In this document: positions 14,457 to 54,003 of the stretch, piece after piece
Numbering within the stretch: the stretch's first letter is position 1
How the letters are laid out: each line of letters opens with the position of its first letter
From: Bacillota bacterium
GTDB lineage: Bacteria; Bacillota; Sulfobacillia; Fermentithermobacillales; Fermentithermobacillaceae
Direction of reading: 5' to 3'
Assembly: GCA_050260675.1 (NCBI GenBank)
Contig: JBLNCN010000011.1
Coordinates: 745,197 to 809,196, forward strand
DNA length: 64,000 bases
Program-made: the position numbers and the translations under genes
The notes under the pieces: generated by a model
Told to the model about the DNA's origin: nothing
Databases searched by the model: none
Seen by the model: only the letters and a program-made list of their open reading frames with translations

Positions 14457-14522
14457 CAGTCCGGGCGTTAGCCGCAATTCTATCGGGGTCAGCCGCAGTT
14501 CTATTAAGCGTCAGCCGCGATC

Positions 14523-14996
14523 CTACTTCTTGCTGTAATACCGAAGGGCCACTGATATCTCAATGAGCCCCACCGGCAGCTCGATGGGGATGACAAGCCT
14601 TTGGATGTCCACGGTGGATATCATGACACCCTTGCCGGCGATGATGGTGGGCGGAGTGAGCTTGCAGATGTAGCCGTGCTCCTCAAGACCTGCCGCGGCC
14701 TGACCGGTGATGATGTTCCCCATTTCAGCGATGGACGACTCGGCCAGCTCGTTGAACATCGGGACCGGCTCCCCCAAAAGGGTTGCGGCAATCCCCTTGG
14801 CCGTCTTTTCTGACATGCTGTACAGCACCGTGCCCTCGGCATCACCCGCGACTCCCAGGGCCACGTTGACCTCTCCGGACGTAGCCTTGGATGACTCCAG
14901 CCGAAGCTGCCCCCTGGTTACTTCCATGCTCAGCTCCGTCTGAAGGAACTTGTACGCGGCATCCAAGAACGGGTTTACCAGACCGGCTTTGAACAT
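14523..14996 (-). CDS. cheX: Chemotaxis phosphatase CheX (CheC/CheX/FliY family)
   Basis: 157 aa, with the motif SIAEMGNIITGQAAAGL characteristic of the CheC/CheX family; terminal gene of the che operon. Confidence 0.7.
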   Translation of the reverse strand: MFKAGLVNPFLDAAYKFLQTELSMEVTRGQLRLESSKATSGEVNVALGVAGDAEGTVLYSMSEKTAKGIAATLLGEPVPMFNELAESSIAEMGNIITGQAAAGLEEHGYICKLTPPTIIAGKGVMISTVDIQRLVIPIELPVGLIEISVALRYYSKK

Positions 14997-44766: not shown

Positions 44767-45819
44767 TCACCTCCCCTTATCCATCCCTGTTGCCGTCCTC
44801 AAGGACGACGAGAGGATGGCCCTGGGCACCGGGAGGTCGGCCATGGTAACGAGGCCCGGCCTGGCCGCGGTAACCAGCGGGATCATGTTCACAGCCGCGG
44901 CGATGGTGCCGATGCCGCCGGGGATCTCAGGCTTTATCGATAGGTTGACAGGCGGATCGCCCTGGATAGTGATGTAGTCGCCCGTGTCCACTCCCTCGGC
45001 TTCCGGGCAGATCTGCTGCGGGTGCTCCAGGAAGATAACCTCGCGTTCGCCGGCGTAGGCCCTTGCGGTGTGCCTGCATCCGGCCACATTTCCAGGCATC
45101 ACGTGGGCGTAGCGGGTCTTTCTTTCAATGTTGGTGATGATCGGTTCCCGCTCCTCAACCACCTTGTCGATTTTCCAACCCAGAGCTTCCCCAATCATGT
45201 AGATGGACTGCTGGAAGCCGACATGGCCAACGATGTCGCCGCTCTCGATCCCCTTCTTGAACTCGTCGGGCGTTGTCCCGACGCCCTGGGTCCTCATGAC
45301 CGTGGGACCAAACGGCGCAAGGTCGTTCACTCTCTTGGCGTAGATGTGGCGGACGTCCCGGCAGATGCCCGTAAGCGAGATCACCAGCGTGTCCAGAACA
45401 AATCCGGGGTTGATGCCGGTCCCGAGCACGGTCTTCCCTGCCGCCTTAGCGAGCGCGTCCATCTTCTTCGATAGGTCGGGCTCAACCGCCCAAGGGTAAG
45501 CCATTTCCTCCGCGATGGTGACTACGTTGCATCCGTGCTCCAACGCTGAGGTGATGTGAGGGAATACATCGGTAACGAATGAGGAGGTGGCAATCACAAC
45601 TATGTCTGGTTTCGCGGCGAAAGCATCATCGAGGTTGCTGGTCACCGTCACTCCGGCCCGGCCTGCCCCCAGGAGTTCTCCGAGGTCCCTACCCACTTTG
45701 GACGCATTCTGCTCGAGAGCGGAGACGACTTTGAGTCCATCCTTCTTCAGTAGGAGTTCAGCCATCCCGCTGCCCATTGCTCCGAGGCCCCAAAGCATCA
45801 CTCTAGTTTCCGTGGGCAT
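44767..45819 (-). CDS. ord: 2,4-diaminopentanoate dehydrogenase (DapB-like NAD(P) oxidoreductase)
   Basis: Rossmann motif [12 protein letters not shown] and a DapB-like C-terminal domain. The start was placed at Met 45819, 7 nt after a GAGGTGA RBS. Confidence 0.75.
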
Positions 45820-46033
45820 CGTTTCACCTCTCTTCAAGTTTTAGGGGAACATTTTCGTTAGGAGTCTGCCCATACGGACCGCATTTCTCCTACCTTATGC
45901 ATTCTTGCATATAAAGGAAAATCCTGCTGCTGTCGGACCTAGGGTGGTGGCGGAGCTACCCCGGGCCCCCTCGGCACGTGTCAACCTCCCCATCAGCAAA
46001 ATCAGAACCCGTCGTTCTGCCCATCGATAATCC

Positions 46034-46245
46034 GGATTGGTAGCTTTCATCATCACGTCGGAGGGGATTGGTAGCTTTTATCATCACATCGTAGAGGATT
46101 GGTAGCTTTCATCGTCACGTCGAAGAGGATTTGTAGCTTCCATCATCACGCCGAAAGGGATTTGTAGCTTTTGTCATCAGGTCGAAGGGGATTGGTAGCT
46201 TTCATCATCACATCGGAATGGGATGAAGTCAGGATTGGTCTTCCT
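46034..46245. repeat. Spacer-less tandem array of a 31-bp unit, about 6.5 copies (GGATTGGTAGCTTTCATCATCACGTCGGAGG and variants)
   Basis: Read directly from the sequence. Unit starts are at 46034, 46065, 46096, 46127, 46158, 46189 plus a partial copy. The array lies in the divergent gap between ord and the GNAT gene. Confidence 0.85.
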
Positions 46246-46298
46246 CCCCGTCGATGGAACAAGAACGGTAGACTTCACCATCAAAGTAATGACAGAAT

Positions 46299-46376
46299 CA
46301 GTAGCAGTGAGTCAGTAGCAGTGGATCAGTGGCAGTGAGTCAGTGGCAGTGAGTCAGTGGCAGTGGATCAGTAGTG
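46299..46376. repeat. Tandem array of a 14-bp unit CAGTRGCAGTGRRT, about 5.5 copies, abutting the GNAT gene start
   Basis: Direct reading gives cagtagcagtgagt / cagtagcagtggat / cagtggcagtgagt x2 / cagtggcagtggat / cagtagtgattgtg. Confidence 0.8.
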
Positions 46377-46398
46377 ATTGTGCTTGGGGGGCATTTAC

Positions 46399-47271
46399 AT
46401 GGACATCAAATACACAAAAGACGGCAAGAACATCAGGCTCCGTCTCGAAGAACCGGCCGATTATCGCGTTGTGGAGGAGCTCACCCGCGAAGCGTTTTGG
46501 GGGATGAGCCGTCCCGGCTGCGATGAGCACCTATTGGTACACAAACTTCGCAAGGCCCCCGCCTTCGTGCCCGAGCTCGACTTCGTAGCCGAGGTCGACG
46601 GCAAGATCGTGGGAAACATCATGTACTCCAAGGCTAAGGTTGTCGACGATTCTGGCGCCGAGCATGAGGTGCTTACGTTCGGCCCCATCAGCGTTCTGCC
46701 GGAGTACCAGTACAAGGGCATCGGCCAGGCGCTTCTGCGGCATACCATAGCCGAAGCCAGGCGGCTCGGGTACCGGGCTATCCTGTTCTTCGGTCACCCC
46801 GACTACTACCCGCGGGTAGGATTCAGAAGAGCAAGCGAGTTCAACATCCTGACGGCAACCGGGAGGAGCTTTGATGCGTTCATGGCCATGCCTCTCTTCG
46901 ATGGCGCGCTTGACGGCATCACCGGCCGCTTCCACGAAGATCCGGTCTTCAACGACCTGGATCCAGAAGAGGTGGAGGGATTCGACAAGGGATTTCCTCC
47001 AAAGGAGAAGCCCGATCTAGTCTCAATAGACGTACTCCTGGAGCAGCTGGAGGCTCCCGCCCAGGCTGCTATCCGCGACCACGGTATTAAGGTGCTGGCC
47101 TGGTTCAACCGTTTTAGCGGTCGGGAGATCGCTTCGTGGCCGGGGATCGACGAAACGGCAATAGCCGTCATTAACAAGACGCTCCAGGAGCACGGGTTAC
47201 CATCTAAGGTGTTCCCCACAGTAAGACGTAAGGCGCCAGGAACTGCCGGGAGCTGCTGGGTTCACGACTAG
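46399..47271 (+). CDS. GNAT-family N-acetyltransferase fused to a C-terminal helix-hairpin-helix / RNAP-alpha-CTD-like domain
   Basis: GNAT core VDGKIVGNIMY...YQYKGIGQALLRHTIAEARRLGYRAILFFGH. The C-terminal segment LVSIDVLLEQLEAPAQAAIRDHGIKVLAWFNRFSGREIASWPGIDETAIAVINKTLQEHG is HhH-like. The ATG at 46399 has a GGGGGG RBS. Confidence 0.7.
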   Translation: MDIKYTKDGKNIRLRLEEPADYRVVEELTREAFWGMSRPGCDEHLLVHKLRKAPAFVPELDFVAEVDGKIVGNIMYSKAKVVDDSGAEHEVLTFGPISVLPEYQYKGIGQALLRHTIAEARRLGYRAILFFGHPDYYPRVGFRRASEFNILTATGRSFDAFMAMPLFDGALDGITGRFHEDPVFNDLDPEEVEGFDKGFPPKEKPDLVSIDVLLEQLEAPAQAAIRDHGIKVLAWFNRFSGREIASWPGIDETAIAVINKTLQEHGLPSKVFPTVRRKAPGTAGSCWVHD

Positions 47272-48980: not shown

Positions 48981-50375
48981 CTATCCGATTGCCTGGGAAC
49001 CCTTTACCGCATAAACATGGCGGAACTTGCCGCTCCGTGGGTCACGCTGAGGGGGCTCCGGCGCGCGGCTAATCTCGACGGACGTCAGGCCCTGCCCCGC
49101 GAGGAAGGCCTGCAGCCGCCCCTTCAGAACCGGCCAGACGAGGCCTTCGTCTCCCGCAGTCTTTGCTTCTAGTCTCACCGACAGTTCGACCGGCGATGTC
49201 TGGACCATCTGCACCCGGTAGAGACCAGGTGTCTCCTTGGCAACGGCAAACAGCGCGAGCGGCAGTACTCTGACGGCCTGGCCGTTTCCCGCTCGGAAGG
49301 AGAGGACATCGTCGGTGCGACCTTCGACCTGGATCCGGGGGAGTTTCGACCCGCACGGACAGGGCTCCGTGTTTATGGTAATCCGGTCACCGAGCTCGTA
49401 TCTGATGAACGGCTGTACGCGGTTCGCGAGGTTCGTCACGTAGCTTGTGTGGGATATCTCGCCGGGTTTCGACGGACGACCATCGACATCAACAGGCTCA
49501 ATGATCGCCCAGTCCGAATGCACGTGCATCCAACCGTGGCCGCAGTCGTAGGCTATCATGGGTATCTCCGAGCACCCATAACTGTTCCAGACCTTAACGC
49601 CGAAAGCTCCCTCGATCTCGCTTCGCACTTCATCCGACAGGTACTCGCCGCTGCTGATGATCATGGACGGTGATATGCGCAGCCTCCCGGCCCGCTTCTC
49701 GTCGGCGAGGAGTGCCAATCCGGTCGGGTAACTGGCAAGCCTTGTCGGCTGGTAATCGTTGAGCTGTCTCACAAGCTCCGAGATAGGCGTTAGGACCGAA
49801 AAGGCCTTTGACCTGCTGGCCCTAGCCGGATGCTCGCGCTCCCGGCGGGCAATCGAGGCTGCGGCGAGGAAGTGGCCGCCCGTGGCCCATACTCCCGCCG
49901 TCCGGTCCTTCAGCACCGACTTGCCGATGCCGCCGTGCTTCATCCAAACCGGCACGGTGCGAACCAGCGCGACCATCTTGACCACGGTGTCAAGCCCATC
50001 GTCATGAACGAGGATGGCGGGCACACCGGTCGAACCGGAAGTGGTGCAAACCATGTACTTGCCGGCATAGTGGATGCCCGCCAAGGACGGGTCGGACATG
50101 AACTTCTCAACGCCCTCTCTGGTGACCGCTGGGTCGGTCACCCAACGGTCGAAGTTGGCCATGAGCTCGGCTTTGGTGACTGGCGGCAACTGCGTTACAT
50201 CGGTTATGTTCTCTGGAATGTCGCGATATTTCTCGGCGTAGAAGGGGGAATTGGTGCGTGCAAAGGCCACGAGTTCCGAGAGCCGTCTACGCTGCCGCTT
50301 GGCGATCTCTTGGGGGCCGGCCTTGCTCACCCGCCACGCGTCCAGGGCAACCTTCAGGCCGCTTAGTTTCTCCAT
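48981..50375 (-). CDS. Adenylate-forming enzyme of the phenylacetate-CoA ligase / coenzyme F390 synthetase family
   Basis: AMP-binding motif TSGSTGVPA and a PaaK-like N-terminal domain. Confidence 0.7.
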   Translation of the reverse strand: MEKLSGLKVALDAWRVSKAGPQEIAKRQRRRLSELVAFARTNSPFYAEKYRDIPENITDVTQLPPVTKAELMANFDRWVTDPAVTREGVEKFMSDPSLAGIHYAGKYMVCTTSGSTGVPAILVHDDGLDTVVKMVALVRTVPVWMKHGGIGKSVLKDRTAGVWATGGHFLAAASIARREREHPARASRSKAFSVLTPISELVRQLNDYQPTRLASYPTGLALLADEKRAGRLRISPSMIISSGEYLSDEVRSEIEGAFGVKVWNSYGCSEIPMIAYDCGHGWMHVHSDWAIIEPVDVDGRPSKPGEISHTSYVTNLANRVQPFIRYELGDRITINTEPCPCGSKLPRIQVEGRTDDVLSFRAGNGQAVRVLPLALFAVAKETPGLYRVQMVQTSPVELSVRLEAKTAGDEGLVWPVLKGRLQAFLAGQGLTSVEISRAPEPPQRDPRSGKFRHVYAVKGSQAIG

Positions 50376-50486
50376 TGATCTATACCTCCATCGACTTCGG
50401 TCTCACCGGTCACTCTACAGGTGGGAGCCAGTGCGGTCGCCTATTGAAAGATAGGTTGGGAGGGTAGGTCTTGTGAGTTAGGGCTG

Positions 50487-53114
50487 TCAGTCGAGCAGGC
50501 GCATGTCCCTGGCACGCGCCACCGCCTGAGTGCGGCTTGCGGCCCCGAGTTTAGAGAGGATGTTGTGGATGTGCCACTTGGCAGTGCCTTGCGTGACAAA
50601 GAGCCGCGTCGCTATGTCCTGGTTCGATAACCCGTCCGCCATAAGCCGGAGGATCTCCAACTCGCGGTCGCTCAGCAGCCCTTGCCTGGGCTGCTGTTCT
50701 TCGCTAGTTGCCGTGGGCGATGAGAGCCGCGACCGAAGTTCCGCCGCGAACTCCCCGGAAGCCCGCGATAGTACAGGGATGATGCGACGTCCCTCATCGA
50801 GGAAGCAGCGCCGGAACCCGGTCCGCTCGGCAAACGCCAGCGCCGTCTCCAACACTTGGGTTGAAGAGGCGGCGTCGCCCATCGACCTAAGGGCGATAGC
50901 TTGGACGACTCTCACACGAGTTGCCCACCCCGGGCATGCAGCATTCTCAGCAGTCTCCAGGAGACGCTTGAGGTAGGTGACTGCCTCATCCGGTCTCTCG
51001 AGGGCTACGAGCGCTCGGCCCAGCGTGAGTTGCTCGAAGACAAGTCGCGGACTCGGAGTTGCCGTCAAATCGCCCTGGGACACCCATTCCCTCACCTCCG
51101 CCGTGTCTCCCCGAGCAAGAGCGAGATGGATCCGCGCCGCCTGAACCAAGCTAAGAAGAGGTTGGCGGGCGTGTCTGCACGCCGCCTCGGATGCCTCGTC
51201 GACACACGCAAGCGCCTGCGCGAGATTGCCCTGCGACGTCATAACTCGGGATAGGGTCACGAGGGCGTGGACCGTAGCCTCGATGTTGCCTAGCGGCCGG
51301 CAGCAGGCGACCCCATCCACGGCGTGGTGGCGGGCCTCGTCCAACCTGTCCAACTCCAGGAGGACCTCGGATAGCCAGGTGTGTCCAAGGGAGGTGACGG
51401 GAAGATGAGAGCCACCTTCTTCGGCGGCGATCTGGAGGGCGCGCTCGAAGACATCCACTGCTCGCTGCAGTTCTCCCTGAAGGGCGTGACACCGCGCGAC
51501 GTTGAAAAGCGCGGCGGCGGCCTGGAACGGGTGGTCTTCGCGCAGACTGGATTCGGCGTACGATGCAAATGATTCGGCGGCCACTCTGACGCTTCCGGCC
51601 AGCCATGACGACCAGCCAAGGGTCATTGAAGCCAGGCCCCGCGAGCGCCAATCATCCGGTAGAGCTTTGGATAAGGCTTCCCGCGCGAGCGACATAGTGC
51701 CGGAAATATCTCCCGCTTGGAGCGCCAGTGAGGCCCGTATCGCGGCGATCTCGGCTCGATGGCCGGTCTCATGCTCGTCAAGAGTCTGTTCAATCGACCT
51801 CAGTAGTTCCACTAGATCCGGAGACGACCCGGTGGAGATAACCTTGGCCCAGGCGTAGGCCAACGCAAGCGACGGCCTGGCCTGAAGCTCGCGGGCGGGC
51901 AAAGACGTGACCCAGTTCAGGAGTCCGTTAACCTCGCCATGGGAGAGCAGTTCACGGCTGATCGCCTGAAGCGCGTCCGCGGCACTGCTGAACTCGTGAG
52001 CCAAGAGCCAGTATTGGATAGCCTGCCGCTTCTCCCCGACTGCATAGGCCCAAGCGGCTGCTTTCCGGTAGATCTCGAGGACTCCGCCAGGGCGTGTCCT
52101 CTGGAGCCAACCCTTCAGGAATTCCCCAAAAAGCCAATGGTACCTGAACCACTGGCGGTCACCGTCCAGCGGAACGATGAACAGGTTTGCCCGCTCTAGC
52201 CGCTCAAGAGTCGCCTGTCCGTCTGTCCGACCCGTGACGGCGTCACAGAGTGGGCCGCAGATCCGTTCCAGGAGGCAGGTCTGCAAAAGGAACTCCTGCG
52301 TGTCCGCAGAGCAGTTCCGAAAGACTTCCTCAGCTAGGTAATCGAACAGGTAGCGATGACCACCACCAACCAGATCGGCCGCCTCGCGGAGGTCATCTGT
52401 CGCGTCCGCCGAATCCCGCAGGGCAAGGGTAGCCAACTGAAGTCCGGCAGCCCAACCCTCAGTTCGCTCTATCAGGAGACGCACTGTTCGATCGGGTAGA
52501 GTCACGCGCATGGTCTTTCGAAGGAATTGAGTTGCCTCTTCGACGTTGAAGCGTAGGTGGTCTCCACGGATTTCGATCAGTTGACCCCGAGCGCGCAGGC
52601 GTGCCAAAGGCAGCTGGGGATCGTTCTGAGACACTATAACGAGGTGCACCTGAGGCGGGACGTGCTCCACCACGAAGGCAACCAGTTGCCGGATCTCCTC
52701 GGTCTCGGCGAGATGATAGTCATCGAGCACCAGAGTAAGGTCGTGACGGAGGAGGGCCAGATCATTCACGAGCGCCATACCTACTTCGAGAGGTGACCCT
52801 CGCCCCGAAGAGTGGAGTACGCCTACGGCGTCCGCTCCGATACCAGGCTCGACCCTCTGCAGTGCCGCTGCAACGTAGGCAGTGAACTGTGCTAGCGAAC
52901 CGTCGCCGGCATCGAGGCTTACCCACGCCACGTCGCCGCGCCCGGCGCTGTACTGGGACACTGCGGTGGTCTTGCCGGATCCTGCAGCGGCACACAGAAG
53001 CGTGAGCAGGCGACCTTGGCCTTCCTGAAGGCGGGCCATGACACGTGGCCTGCTAACCCAGGCTTTGTTCGCTGAGGGGACCGTCACTTTGGTGACGGTC
53101 AGGGCAGTATGCAT
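50487..53114 (-). CDS. MalT-like LuxR-family STAND regulator (P-loop NTPase + TPR + C-terminal LuxR HTH)
   Basis: LLCAAAGSGKTT, LVLDDYH and a C-terminal LSDRELEILRLMADGLSNQDIATRLFVTQGTAKWHIHNILSKLG. Start at Met 53114 (track 53174). Confidence 0.85.
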   Translation of the reverse strand: MHTALTVTKVTVPSANKAWVSRPRVMARLQEGQGRLLTLLCAAAGSGKTTAVSQYSAGRGDVAWVSLDAGDGSLAQFTAYVAAALQRVEPGIGADAVGVLHSSGRGSPLEVGMALVNDLALLRHDLTLVLDDYHLAETEEIRQLVAFVVEHVPPQVHLVIVSQNDPQLPLARLRARGQLIEIRGDHLRFNVEEATQFLRKTMRVTLPDRTVRLLIERTEGWAAGLQLATLALRDSADATDDLREAADLVGGGHRYLFDYLAEEVFRNCSADTQEFLLQTCLLERICGPLCDAVTGRTDGQATLERLERANLFIVPLDGDRQWFRYHWLFGEFLKGWLQRTRPGGVLEIYRKAAAWAYAVGEKRQAIQYWLLAHEFSSAADALQAISRELLSHGEVNGLLNWVTSLPARELQARPSLALAYAWAKVISTGSSPDLVELLRSIEQTLDEHETGHRAEIAAIRASLALQAGDISGTMSLAREALSKALPDDWRSRGLASMTLGWSSWLAGSVRVAAESFASYAESSLREDHPFQAAAALFNVARCHALQGELQRAVDVFERALQIAAEEGGSHLPVTSLGHTWLSEVLLELDRLDEARHHAVDGVACCRPLGNIEATVHALVTLSRVMTSQGNLAQALACVDEASEAACRHARQPLLSLVQAARIHLALARGDTAEVREWVSQGDLTATPSPRLVFEQLTLGRALVALERPDEAVTYLKRLLETAENAACPGWATRVRVVQAIALRSMGDAASSTQVLETALAFAERTGFRRCFLDEGRRIIPVLSRASGEFAAELRSRLSSPTATSEEQQPRQGLLSDRELEILRLMADGLSNQDIATRLFVTQGTAKWHIHNILSKLGAASRTQAVARARDMRLLD

Positions 53115-54003
53115 TGGGCCGGATACCTCCGCGATGTTCAACGGATGCCTCCAGAGTGTAGCTGACGGCCTCAAGACACAGTCCCTTTCCGGGCGCGCAG
53201 GTGCCTATCCTGCACTCGCCGGGGTTAAGTAGGGCAGTTTTGACGGTACCGGAAGGCAGGTGGCCTCTTCCGATGTCCAGAAGCGTTCCAACCAGTAGGC
53301 GGACCATCTTGTACAGAAACCCGTCGGCCGCCACCCAGAACTCCCACAGAGCGTCCGGGTGCCCGTCGACTTCCCTCCGAACCCACTCGGCCCGGATCAC
53401 CTCGCGTACGGTTGTCGTGGCCGAAGACCCTTCCGCCCGGAACGAGAGGAAGTCGTGCTTCCCAACGATTGCCGCAGCCTCGGCCGCCAGCAGGTCGAAG
53501 TCCACGTGCCACGGGTGCCAGTGGGTGTACCTGGTCCAGAAGATGTCCTGCTCCGGCAGTCTCCACAGGCGGTAGCAGTACGTCTTTGACGCCGCATCCG
53601 ATTGCGGATCAAAATCACCTGCAACGTCCTCGGCAGGACCCAGGAGCACGTCGGTCGGCAAAAACGCCCTTATGGCCCTGGGGAGCCGCACAGCCGGCAT
53701 CGTGCTGGACGTGGTGAAAGATATGACCTGCCCGCGGGCATGCACTCCCGCGTCCGTCCGTCCGGATGCCTTCACGGTAACCGGATGGCCCAGGAGTTGC
53801 TGGAGCGCCTCTTCCAAGACAGACTGCACCGTCCGCTCACCCGGCTGGCGCTGAAACCCGGCGAAATCCGTTCCATCGTACTGCACAACTGCCTTAAGCC
53901 GCCTCCGGACCAGCCCCTTAGTCGCTGCGGCCCCGACAGTAGTCGGGGTCGTCGCCCCTGAGTGGCTGCTCGGCGAACTCCAGACCGACGGGCGACCGTC
54001 CAC
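53053..54003 (-). CDS. truA: tRNA pseudouridine(38-40) synthase TruA (start codon uncertain; track ORF probably about 30 aa too long)
   Basis: AVVQYDGTDFAGFQRQPGERTVQ ... RTDAGVHA ... YKMVR. Confidence 0.8.
   Translation of the reverse strand: MDGRPSVWSSPSSHSGATTPTTVGAAATKGLVRRRLKAVVQYDGTDFAGFQRQPGERTVQSVLEEALQQLLGHPVTVKASGRTDAGVHARGQVISFTTSSTMPAVRLPRAIRAFLPTDVLLGPAEDVAGDFDPQSDAASKTYCYRLWRLPEQDIFWTRYTHWHPWHVDFDLLAAEAAAIVGKHDFLSFRAEGSSATTTVREVIRAEWVRREVDGHPDALWEFWVAADGFLYKMVRLLVGTLLDIGRGHLPSGTVKTALLNPGECRIGTCAPGKGLCLEAVSYTLEASVEHRGGIRPNAYCPDRHQSDGPLSEQSLG

Follow-up and report, generated by a model that had tools for sequence, protein, structure and literature searches.

The locus described here raises the question of what a tandem array of 31-bp units is doing in the spacer between two divergent genes, and whether it serves either of them. 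The array lies in the window, a stretch of 64,000 nucleotides from an uncultured Bacillota lineage; relatives of the window carry the name Candidatus Fermentithermobacillus. On one side of the array is ord, the first gene of an ornithine fermentation cluster that continues, judging from Pfam content, with ortA, ortB, oraS, oraE, a MutL-like gene and orr (racemase). On the other side is a gene for a GNAT acetyltransferase, whose product matches an NCBI record at 100%. The intergenic region measures 576 bp and holds, besides the 31-bp array, a second array of 14-bp units. The features of the locus are the following:

44767-45822, minus strand: ord, 2,4-diaminopentanoate dehydrogenase (100% match to the NCBI protein of that name).
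45838-45929, minus strand: the sole part of the intergenic region that all five species have conserved (MAFFT alignment of five intergenic regions).
45972-46033, no strand: older, diverged flank with a 31-bp period (repeat family D3, lag-31 autocorrelation).
46034-46219, no strand: six full 31-bp units, head-to-tail, without indels (Tandem Repeats Finder, TRF, and reading in register).
46220-46231, no strand: 12-nt insertion GGGATGAAGTCA, which ends the register after unit 6 (register reading).
46232-46293, no strand: two degenerate units (sliding identity to the consensus).
46295-46374, no strand: second tandem array, 5.5 copies of the 14-bp (7+7) unit TCAGTRGCAGTGRR (TRF, register).
46399-47271, plus strand: GNAT acetyltransferase (YhbS-like), 290 aa, with an alpha-CTD-like C-terminal domain (Pfam, NCBIfam, profile).

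TRF placed the array at 46034-46224, with a period of 31, 6.1 copies, 83% matches, 0% indels and a score of 254. The unit consensus is GGATTGGTAGCTTTCATCATCACGTCGAAGG, from which each of the six full units departs by 1-4 substitutions. Compared in pairs, the units agree at 23-28 of 31 positions (74-90%); all six are distinct, the divergence among them is 17%, and the array as a whole has taken about 20 substitutions yet not a single indel. Of the 11 variable columns, ten are in positions 14-31 of the unit, and there is hardly any variation in its first 13 nt (GGATTKGTAGCTT); this clustering of variation toward the 3'-end, a block defined post hoc, is not statistically compelling. Matches to the unit or to its 13-nt core numbered 5-6 in the actual sequence and 0 in 100 shuffles, which excludes a chance origin of the array. 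The original prediction had described a spacer-less tandem array between divergent ord and GNAT with no ORF across it, and both statements were borne out, the former by TRF and the gene positions and the latter by the finding that the overlapping ORFs are 35-55 aa long. Its count of about 6.5 copies holds for the six full units, but the supposed half copy (46220-46245) is the 12-nt insertion followed by a degenerate unit; similarly, the 2-5 substitutions per copy that it gave have to be lowered to the range above, although the 3'-end bias that it pointed out is real.

Past unit 6, the spacing of the peaks of identity to the consensus shifts from 31 to 38/43. The degenerate unit at 46232-46262 (GGATTGGTCTTCC...) agrees with the consensus at 14 of 31 positions and the one at about 46262-46292 (..ACGGTAGACTTCACCATCA..) at 18 of 31, the random expectation being 7.8 +/- 2.4. 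The latter unit is kept in two of the relatives described below (L159 and L151), and L151 aligns to positions 46256-46301 of the window at 83%. Its sequence also includes TAGACT-N18-CAGAAT, which could at best be a weak promoter-like site; no consensus sigma-70 promoter turned up when 45700-46500 was scanned. On the left side, the 94 bp next to the array, taken alone, gave their highest autocorrelation at lag 31 (z 3.4), and the two units that can be read there have 17 of 31 positions in common. The motifs GTCAACCTCCCCATC and GTCGTTCTGCCCATC of this flank are 31 bp apart and similar to GTCTTCCTCCCCGTC at 46238, and repeat family D3 is common to the two flanks of the array.

No additional copies of the unit or of its core were found in the 64-kb window. 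JGI metagenomes (241 million records) were scanned for two cores 26-36 bp apart, and the 32 matches obtained were unrelated tandem repeats with a chance 11-mer; searches of viral contigs, plasmids and phages brought up no related array either. Genome contigs were scanned with GATTNGTAGCTTNNNTCNTCA, and among the matches listed there were unrelated single occurrences and none with at least two units; this pattern has 16 specified bases, for which we estimate about 280 chance matches, and it is too loose to judge dispersal in this genome. The array region contained 0 inverted repeats and its folding was no better than that of shuffles on either strand (z +0.95 and +1.36). A dispersed REP/MITE element was rejected on the lack of copies elsewhere in the 64 kb and of related arrays in the metagenome, viral, plasmid and phage data, the lack of inverted repeats and the positive folding z-scores, in agreement with the original prediction. 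The remark in that prediction that the unit has the size of a CRISPR repeat proved to be a coincidence. The 31-bp unit length is all that the array has in common with CRISPR: the units, being as long as the period, abut without spacers, the repeat is not palindromic and forms no hairpin, and Rfam, with E values up to 10 allowed, matched no CRISPR-DR to the array. Cas domains were absent among the domains of the genes examined within about 10 kb on either side, which were those of the ord cluster, GNAT, an amidase, ribosomal proteins, an LAL regulator and an ECF transporter. A literature search returned nothing relevant.

Orthologous loci were gathered through Ord and GNAT homologues, and showed the following at the junction:

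L153: Ord 79%, GNAT 81%; divergent ord/GNAT kept; six 30-bp units of another sequence.
L159 = L160 = L161 (three identical assemblies): Ord 86%, GNAT 83%; 5-7 degenerate 31-bp units.
L157: Ord 79%; about four degenerate 31-bp units, starting GARGACTGRC.
L151 = L152 (two assemblies): Ord 89%, the closest relative; both GNAT and the array absent.

The array of L153 is made up of two blocks of three units (GATTACCACCCGGGGACGG...), the blocks forming a 100-bp higher-order duplication. Its flanks match those of the window, with ..GTTCCATC..GGAGG (also ..TGTTCCATC..GGAGG) on one side and GATGGAACA on the other, so that the two arrays are positional orthologues; the unit sequences of these two species are merely about 50% alike. 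The in-register 31-bp units of L159 agree with the window consensus at 16, 22 and 19 of 31 positions, ahead of them stand two weaker units, which at 13 and 14 are each close to chance, and two more lie beyond a 21-bp step. The top autocorrelation lag was 31 in the window (z 10.5), in L159 (3.4) and in L157 (3.7), and 30 in L153 (7.9). Copy number across species is 0 in L151/L152, about 4 in L157, 5-7 in L159-161, 6 in L153 and 6+2 in the window. Within species, the intergenic region was identical in the few assemblies at hand, two for the window species and three for the sister species.

The L151/L152 lineage is without about 294 bp that include the entire array, and the 326 bp of the window between the aligned blocks correspond there to 32 bp; both flanks and the ord-proximal block (93%) are retained. 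Loss of GNAT and the array in this lineage is the simplest history, because more distant species have both, and under it the two would have gone by two separate deletions. The array was present in all four of the species with GNAT at the ord junction and absent in the one without GNAT. Where GNAT orthologues lie away from ord (L162, L163 and L164-173), no 31-bp array was found, so that the GNAT gene is not generally accompanied by one.

The least variable block of the unit is homologous in the window and L153 (GGATTGGTAGC and GGGTGGTAATC, respectively), and a related core (GGTCAGTCTTC, GGTTGCCTTCC and GGTAGACTTCACC, the last being the conserved flank) recurs in L157 and L159. Apart from a loose core common to the arrays (GGTAG-CTTyC / GGTGGTAAT / GGTCAGTCTTC), the array region could not be aligned. 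These similarities give hints that a putative binding core of the unit may be under constraint. The period of 30-31 bp, which is about three helical turns, is broken by the 21-bp step in L159 and by a 41-bp unit in L153.

The block beside ord (45838-45929) is identical to L151 at 86 of 92 positions (93%). It includes a 16-bp palindrome (TATGCAAGAATGCATA, 45896-45911) that is unique in the window, and a hairpin, TAGGAG-N22-CTCCTA, whose arms are invariant and whose loop is variable; no covariation was seen in this hairpin, all its pairs being invariant across the compared species and hence uninformative. The block is likely to be the promoter, operator or leader of ord, and the palindrome is possibly, as a guess, an ArgR-like operator. 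A regulon search of the 64 kb found no further sites for the palindrome or for the 13-nt core of the array unit; a second half-unit motif gave a few matches within genes, which were taken as chance. Because ord has its conserved control region in the 90 bp beside it, the array does not serve as its operator, and the best reading of these comparisons is that it would be dispensable for ord expression. In L155 and L158 (Ord 76-77%), ord is preceded by a perfect TGGCAC-N5-TTGCT and by a divergent gene for a sigma-54 enhancer-binding protein. When L155:1640-1940 and L158:560-920 were compared with positions 45823-46033 of the window, no sigma-54 promoter was present at ord in the window, and the window clade is also without the enhancer-binding protein gene. 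Control of the ord operon has thus turned over, since the sigma-54 system of L155 and L158 is missing from the window clade.

The account that we prefer, and to which we give slightly over half of our confidence, is that the ord/GNAT spacer is filled by an old intergenic minisatellite (VNTR) restricted to this lineage, and that the array is the part of it in which homogenisation is most recent. In the ancestor of the clade, a segment of about 31 bp would have been duplicated in tandem, and slipped-strand mispairing together with unequal recombination would have expanded, contracted and re-homogenised the repeats in each lineage (concerted evolution), so that the units now differ between species in sequence and in number; from one lineage the array would have been removed entirely. 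Such a history is proposed because the units are more alike within than between genomes and because copy number differs by species. The array consists of imperfect head-to-tail copies of 31 bp in non-coding DNA, and their number varies between related genomes, as expected of a VNTR.

Intergenic VNTRs are the loci of MLVA typing, for example the mycobacterial MIRU-type repeats of 40-100 bp. Like bacterial VNTRs, the array has spacer-less, imperfect, head-to-tail units of tens of bp in an intergenic position, varies between lineages, and bears the marks of duplication and concerted evolution, including the higher-order duplication of L153. Unlike them, it is a single locus and not a dispersed family, no polymorphism has so far been seen within species (n=2 and 3 assemblies), and its periodicity has outlasted the divergence of its units at one orthologous junction.

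Under the minisatellite account, any action of the array would be exerted at the DNA level. With a unit of about three helical turns, the gain or loss of units would alter promoter-region distance and not rotational phase, and this preservation of phase may be the reason why a period of 30-31 bp has been tolerated. A regulatory effect, if there is one, would most likely be modest, species-specific and directed toward the GNAT side, and most likely the array has no essential or conserved regulatory role. It would then be an intergenic minisatellite whose period and position outlived its sequence across species, a small and clean example of the concerted evolution of bacterial non-coding repeats that could serve as a strain-typing marker.

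Some observations count against the minisatellite. Useless DNA tends to be deleted from bacterial genomes, yet the array persists in four species, the most distant of them at 79% Ord identity, and about six copies have been kept or expanded independently in two of them. The least variable block of the unit is homologous in the window and L153, with a related core in L157 and L159; the array and GNAT are present or absent together, which could mean functional coupling; and the substitutions of the window array came without an indel. Most of these observations would also fit a multi-site binding platform (an operator/UAS, iteron-like), in which a core of about GGTAG-CTTyC would be recognised by an oligomerising regulator on one face of the helix. 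The platform would control the GNAT promoter and possibly divergent ord, and the co-evolution of sites and protein would explain the species-specific units. We consider this alternative possible but doubtful. Besides the shared sub-block and related core, the absence of indels in the six window units and the loss of the array along with GNAT in L151, it is favoured by the 30-31-bp period in four species, by the position between divergent genes, by a neighbouring GNAT with an alpha-CTD-like and potentially DNA-binding domain, and by a MalT/LAL-type oligomerising regulator encoded 4 kb off, in this genome only. However, no classical transcription-factor gene is adjacent, the 64 kb contain no extra core sites, GNAT orthologues in other contexts have no array, L153 and the window differ by 2 nt in the spacing of the partly conserved blocks TGGTA and ATCnCGTC, and the step in L159 breaks the period. 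The statistics of the core are also weak (a block chosen post hoc, few independent units, and a higher-order duplicate in L153). The multi-site operator or iteron array that was originally suggested stays unproven and is weakened: the weak core and the three-turn period speak for it, but unit sequence varies by species, with about 50% likeness, and the truly conserved block is elsewhere.

Known arrays of iteron, operator or centromere type include plasmid iterons, MalT boxes and sopC of the F plasmid, with 12 copies of 43 bp. The array is like them in having direct repeats near an integral number of helical turns, a place in a regulatory intergenic region, and units with a core and a variable remainder. 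Unlike iterons, it has neither an adjacent gene for a cognate binding protein nor a replicon or partition context, its core is weakly conserved between orthologues, and the closest relative does without it.

A more specific form of the binding hypothesis, which we judge unlikely, is that the array is a chromosomal, iteron-like docking platform with 6-8 same-face sites, spaced by three helical turns, for the cooperative binding of a co-evolving regulator, possibly GNAT itself through its alpha-CTD-like domain, and that it replaced sigma-54 control. If this were true, the acetyltransferase would be tethered to the platform, or the platform would govern how active the divergent GNAT and ord promoters are. 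In a profile of 21 homologues, the C-terminal 75 or so residues of GNAT (window 46984-47214) matched the RpoA CTDs of many species with E values of 0.03-1.4, and NCBIfam PRK07758 matched residues 213-268 (E 2e-5). Searches for GNAT homologues gave 1714 matches below 1e-30, and the GNAT/alpha-CTD-like fusion family is apparently large and uncharacterised. Were the units binding sites, regulation of the ornithine-fermentation operon and its neighbour would have passed from a sigma-54 activator to a new form of control, and a DNA-associated role would be indicated for this family.

We think it very unlikely that the array is, as the original prediction had also proposed, a contingency element of variable copy number, in which slippage would switch or tune the expression of ord or GNAT within populations. 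It is indeed a tandem repeat in a promoter region, with copy numbers that differ between species. Classical contingency loci have perfect units of 1-9 bp, located inside ORFs or between the -35 and -10 regions; unlike these, the array has far longer and imperfect units, lies outside ORFs and -35/-10 spacers, and has the same copy number, in an identical intergenic region, in the two and three assemblies of the same species. Slippage would be strongly lowered in units of 31 bp that are 17% diverged.

Transcription of the array, whether within a minus-strand leader of ord or as a plus-strand sRNA or GNAT 5' UTR, would turn it into a repeated RNA binding site or sponge, which we hold to be highly improbable. 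A weak terminator-like hairpin is found on the minus strand just past the array (46019-46003), although the number of terminators is not above chance. The plus-strand units contain GGA/GGAGG motifs, and each minus-strand unit contains GUGAUGAUGA, which causes sub-threshold C/D-box-like Rfam matches; these snoRNA look-alikes appeared in permissive mode only (E about 1-10) and were rejected, and at the gathering score Rfam placed no family on the array and one tRNA elsewhere in the window. Neither GUGAUGAUGA nor the GGA/GGAGG motifs occur in the units of L153 and L157, and the array is missing in L151 while the ord leader is intact. A cis-regulatory RNA or sRNA was rejected for its lack of structure above shuffles, of a family match and of a unit sequence kept across species.

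Finally, there is next to no chance that the array arose by repeat expansion or collapse during assembly, to which a MAG with its error-prone repeats might be open, because all six units are distinct, the k-mer-based Logan assembly L001 (SRR24035587) is 100% identical to the window across the entire intergenic region, and 30-31-bp orthologous arrays occur in four other assemblies from three other species, as befits the old array of the original prediction.

The junction between the amidase gene and ord is variable: it has no insert in L151, holds GNAT in the window and L159, and holds GNAT and AbiE in L153, where an AbiEii-like gene and a small ORF lie between amidase and GNAT (L153:2786-3671), in that locus only. 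In the GNAT orthologues of L153 (about 4553) and L157 (about 530), a CTG stands where the window has ATG, 7 nt past a GGGGG Shine-Dalgarno; as neither orthologue has a canonical start in frame, they may use a non-canonical start codon or be weakly translated. Further along, an AMP-binding-like gene (48981-50375) and the gene for the MalT/LAL-type regulator (AAA, TPR_MalT and LuxR HTH; 50487-53174) are inserted between truA and rplM of the window (48981-53174), and truA and rplM are adjacent in L151, L153 and L159, without this two-gene insert.

The 14-bp array stops 25 bp before the ATG of GNAT and is probably within the GNAT 5' UTR. At the same place, L159 has about three diverged units (CAGCGRCGCTGGAT) and L151 about one. 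A third intergenic tandem repeat, with three copies of 22 bp (GTCAGCCGCAATTCTAT...), was observed at 14462-14525, between a CheX-like and a DUF4015 gene. The presence of two further intergenic arrays in 64 kb suggests that this genome is prone to tandem duplication in its spacers.
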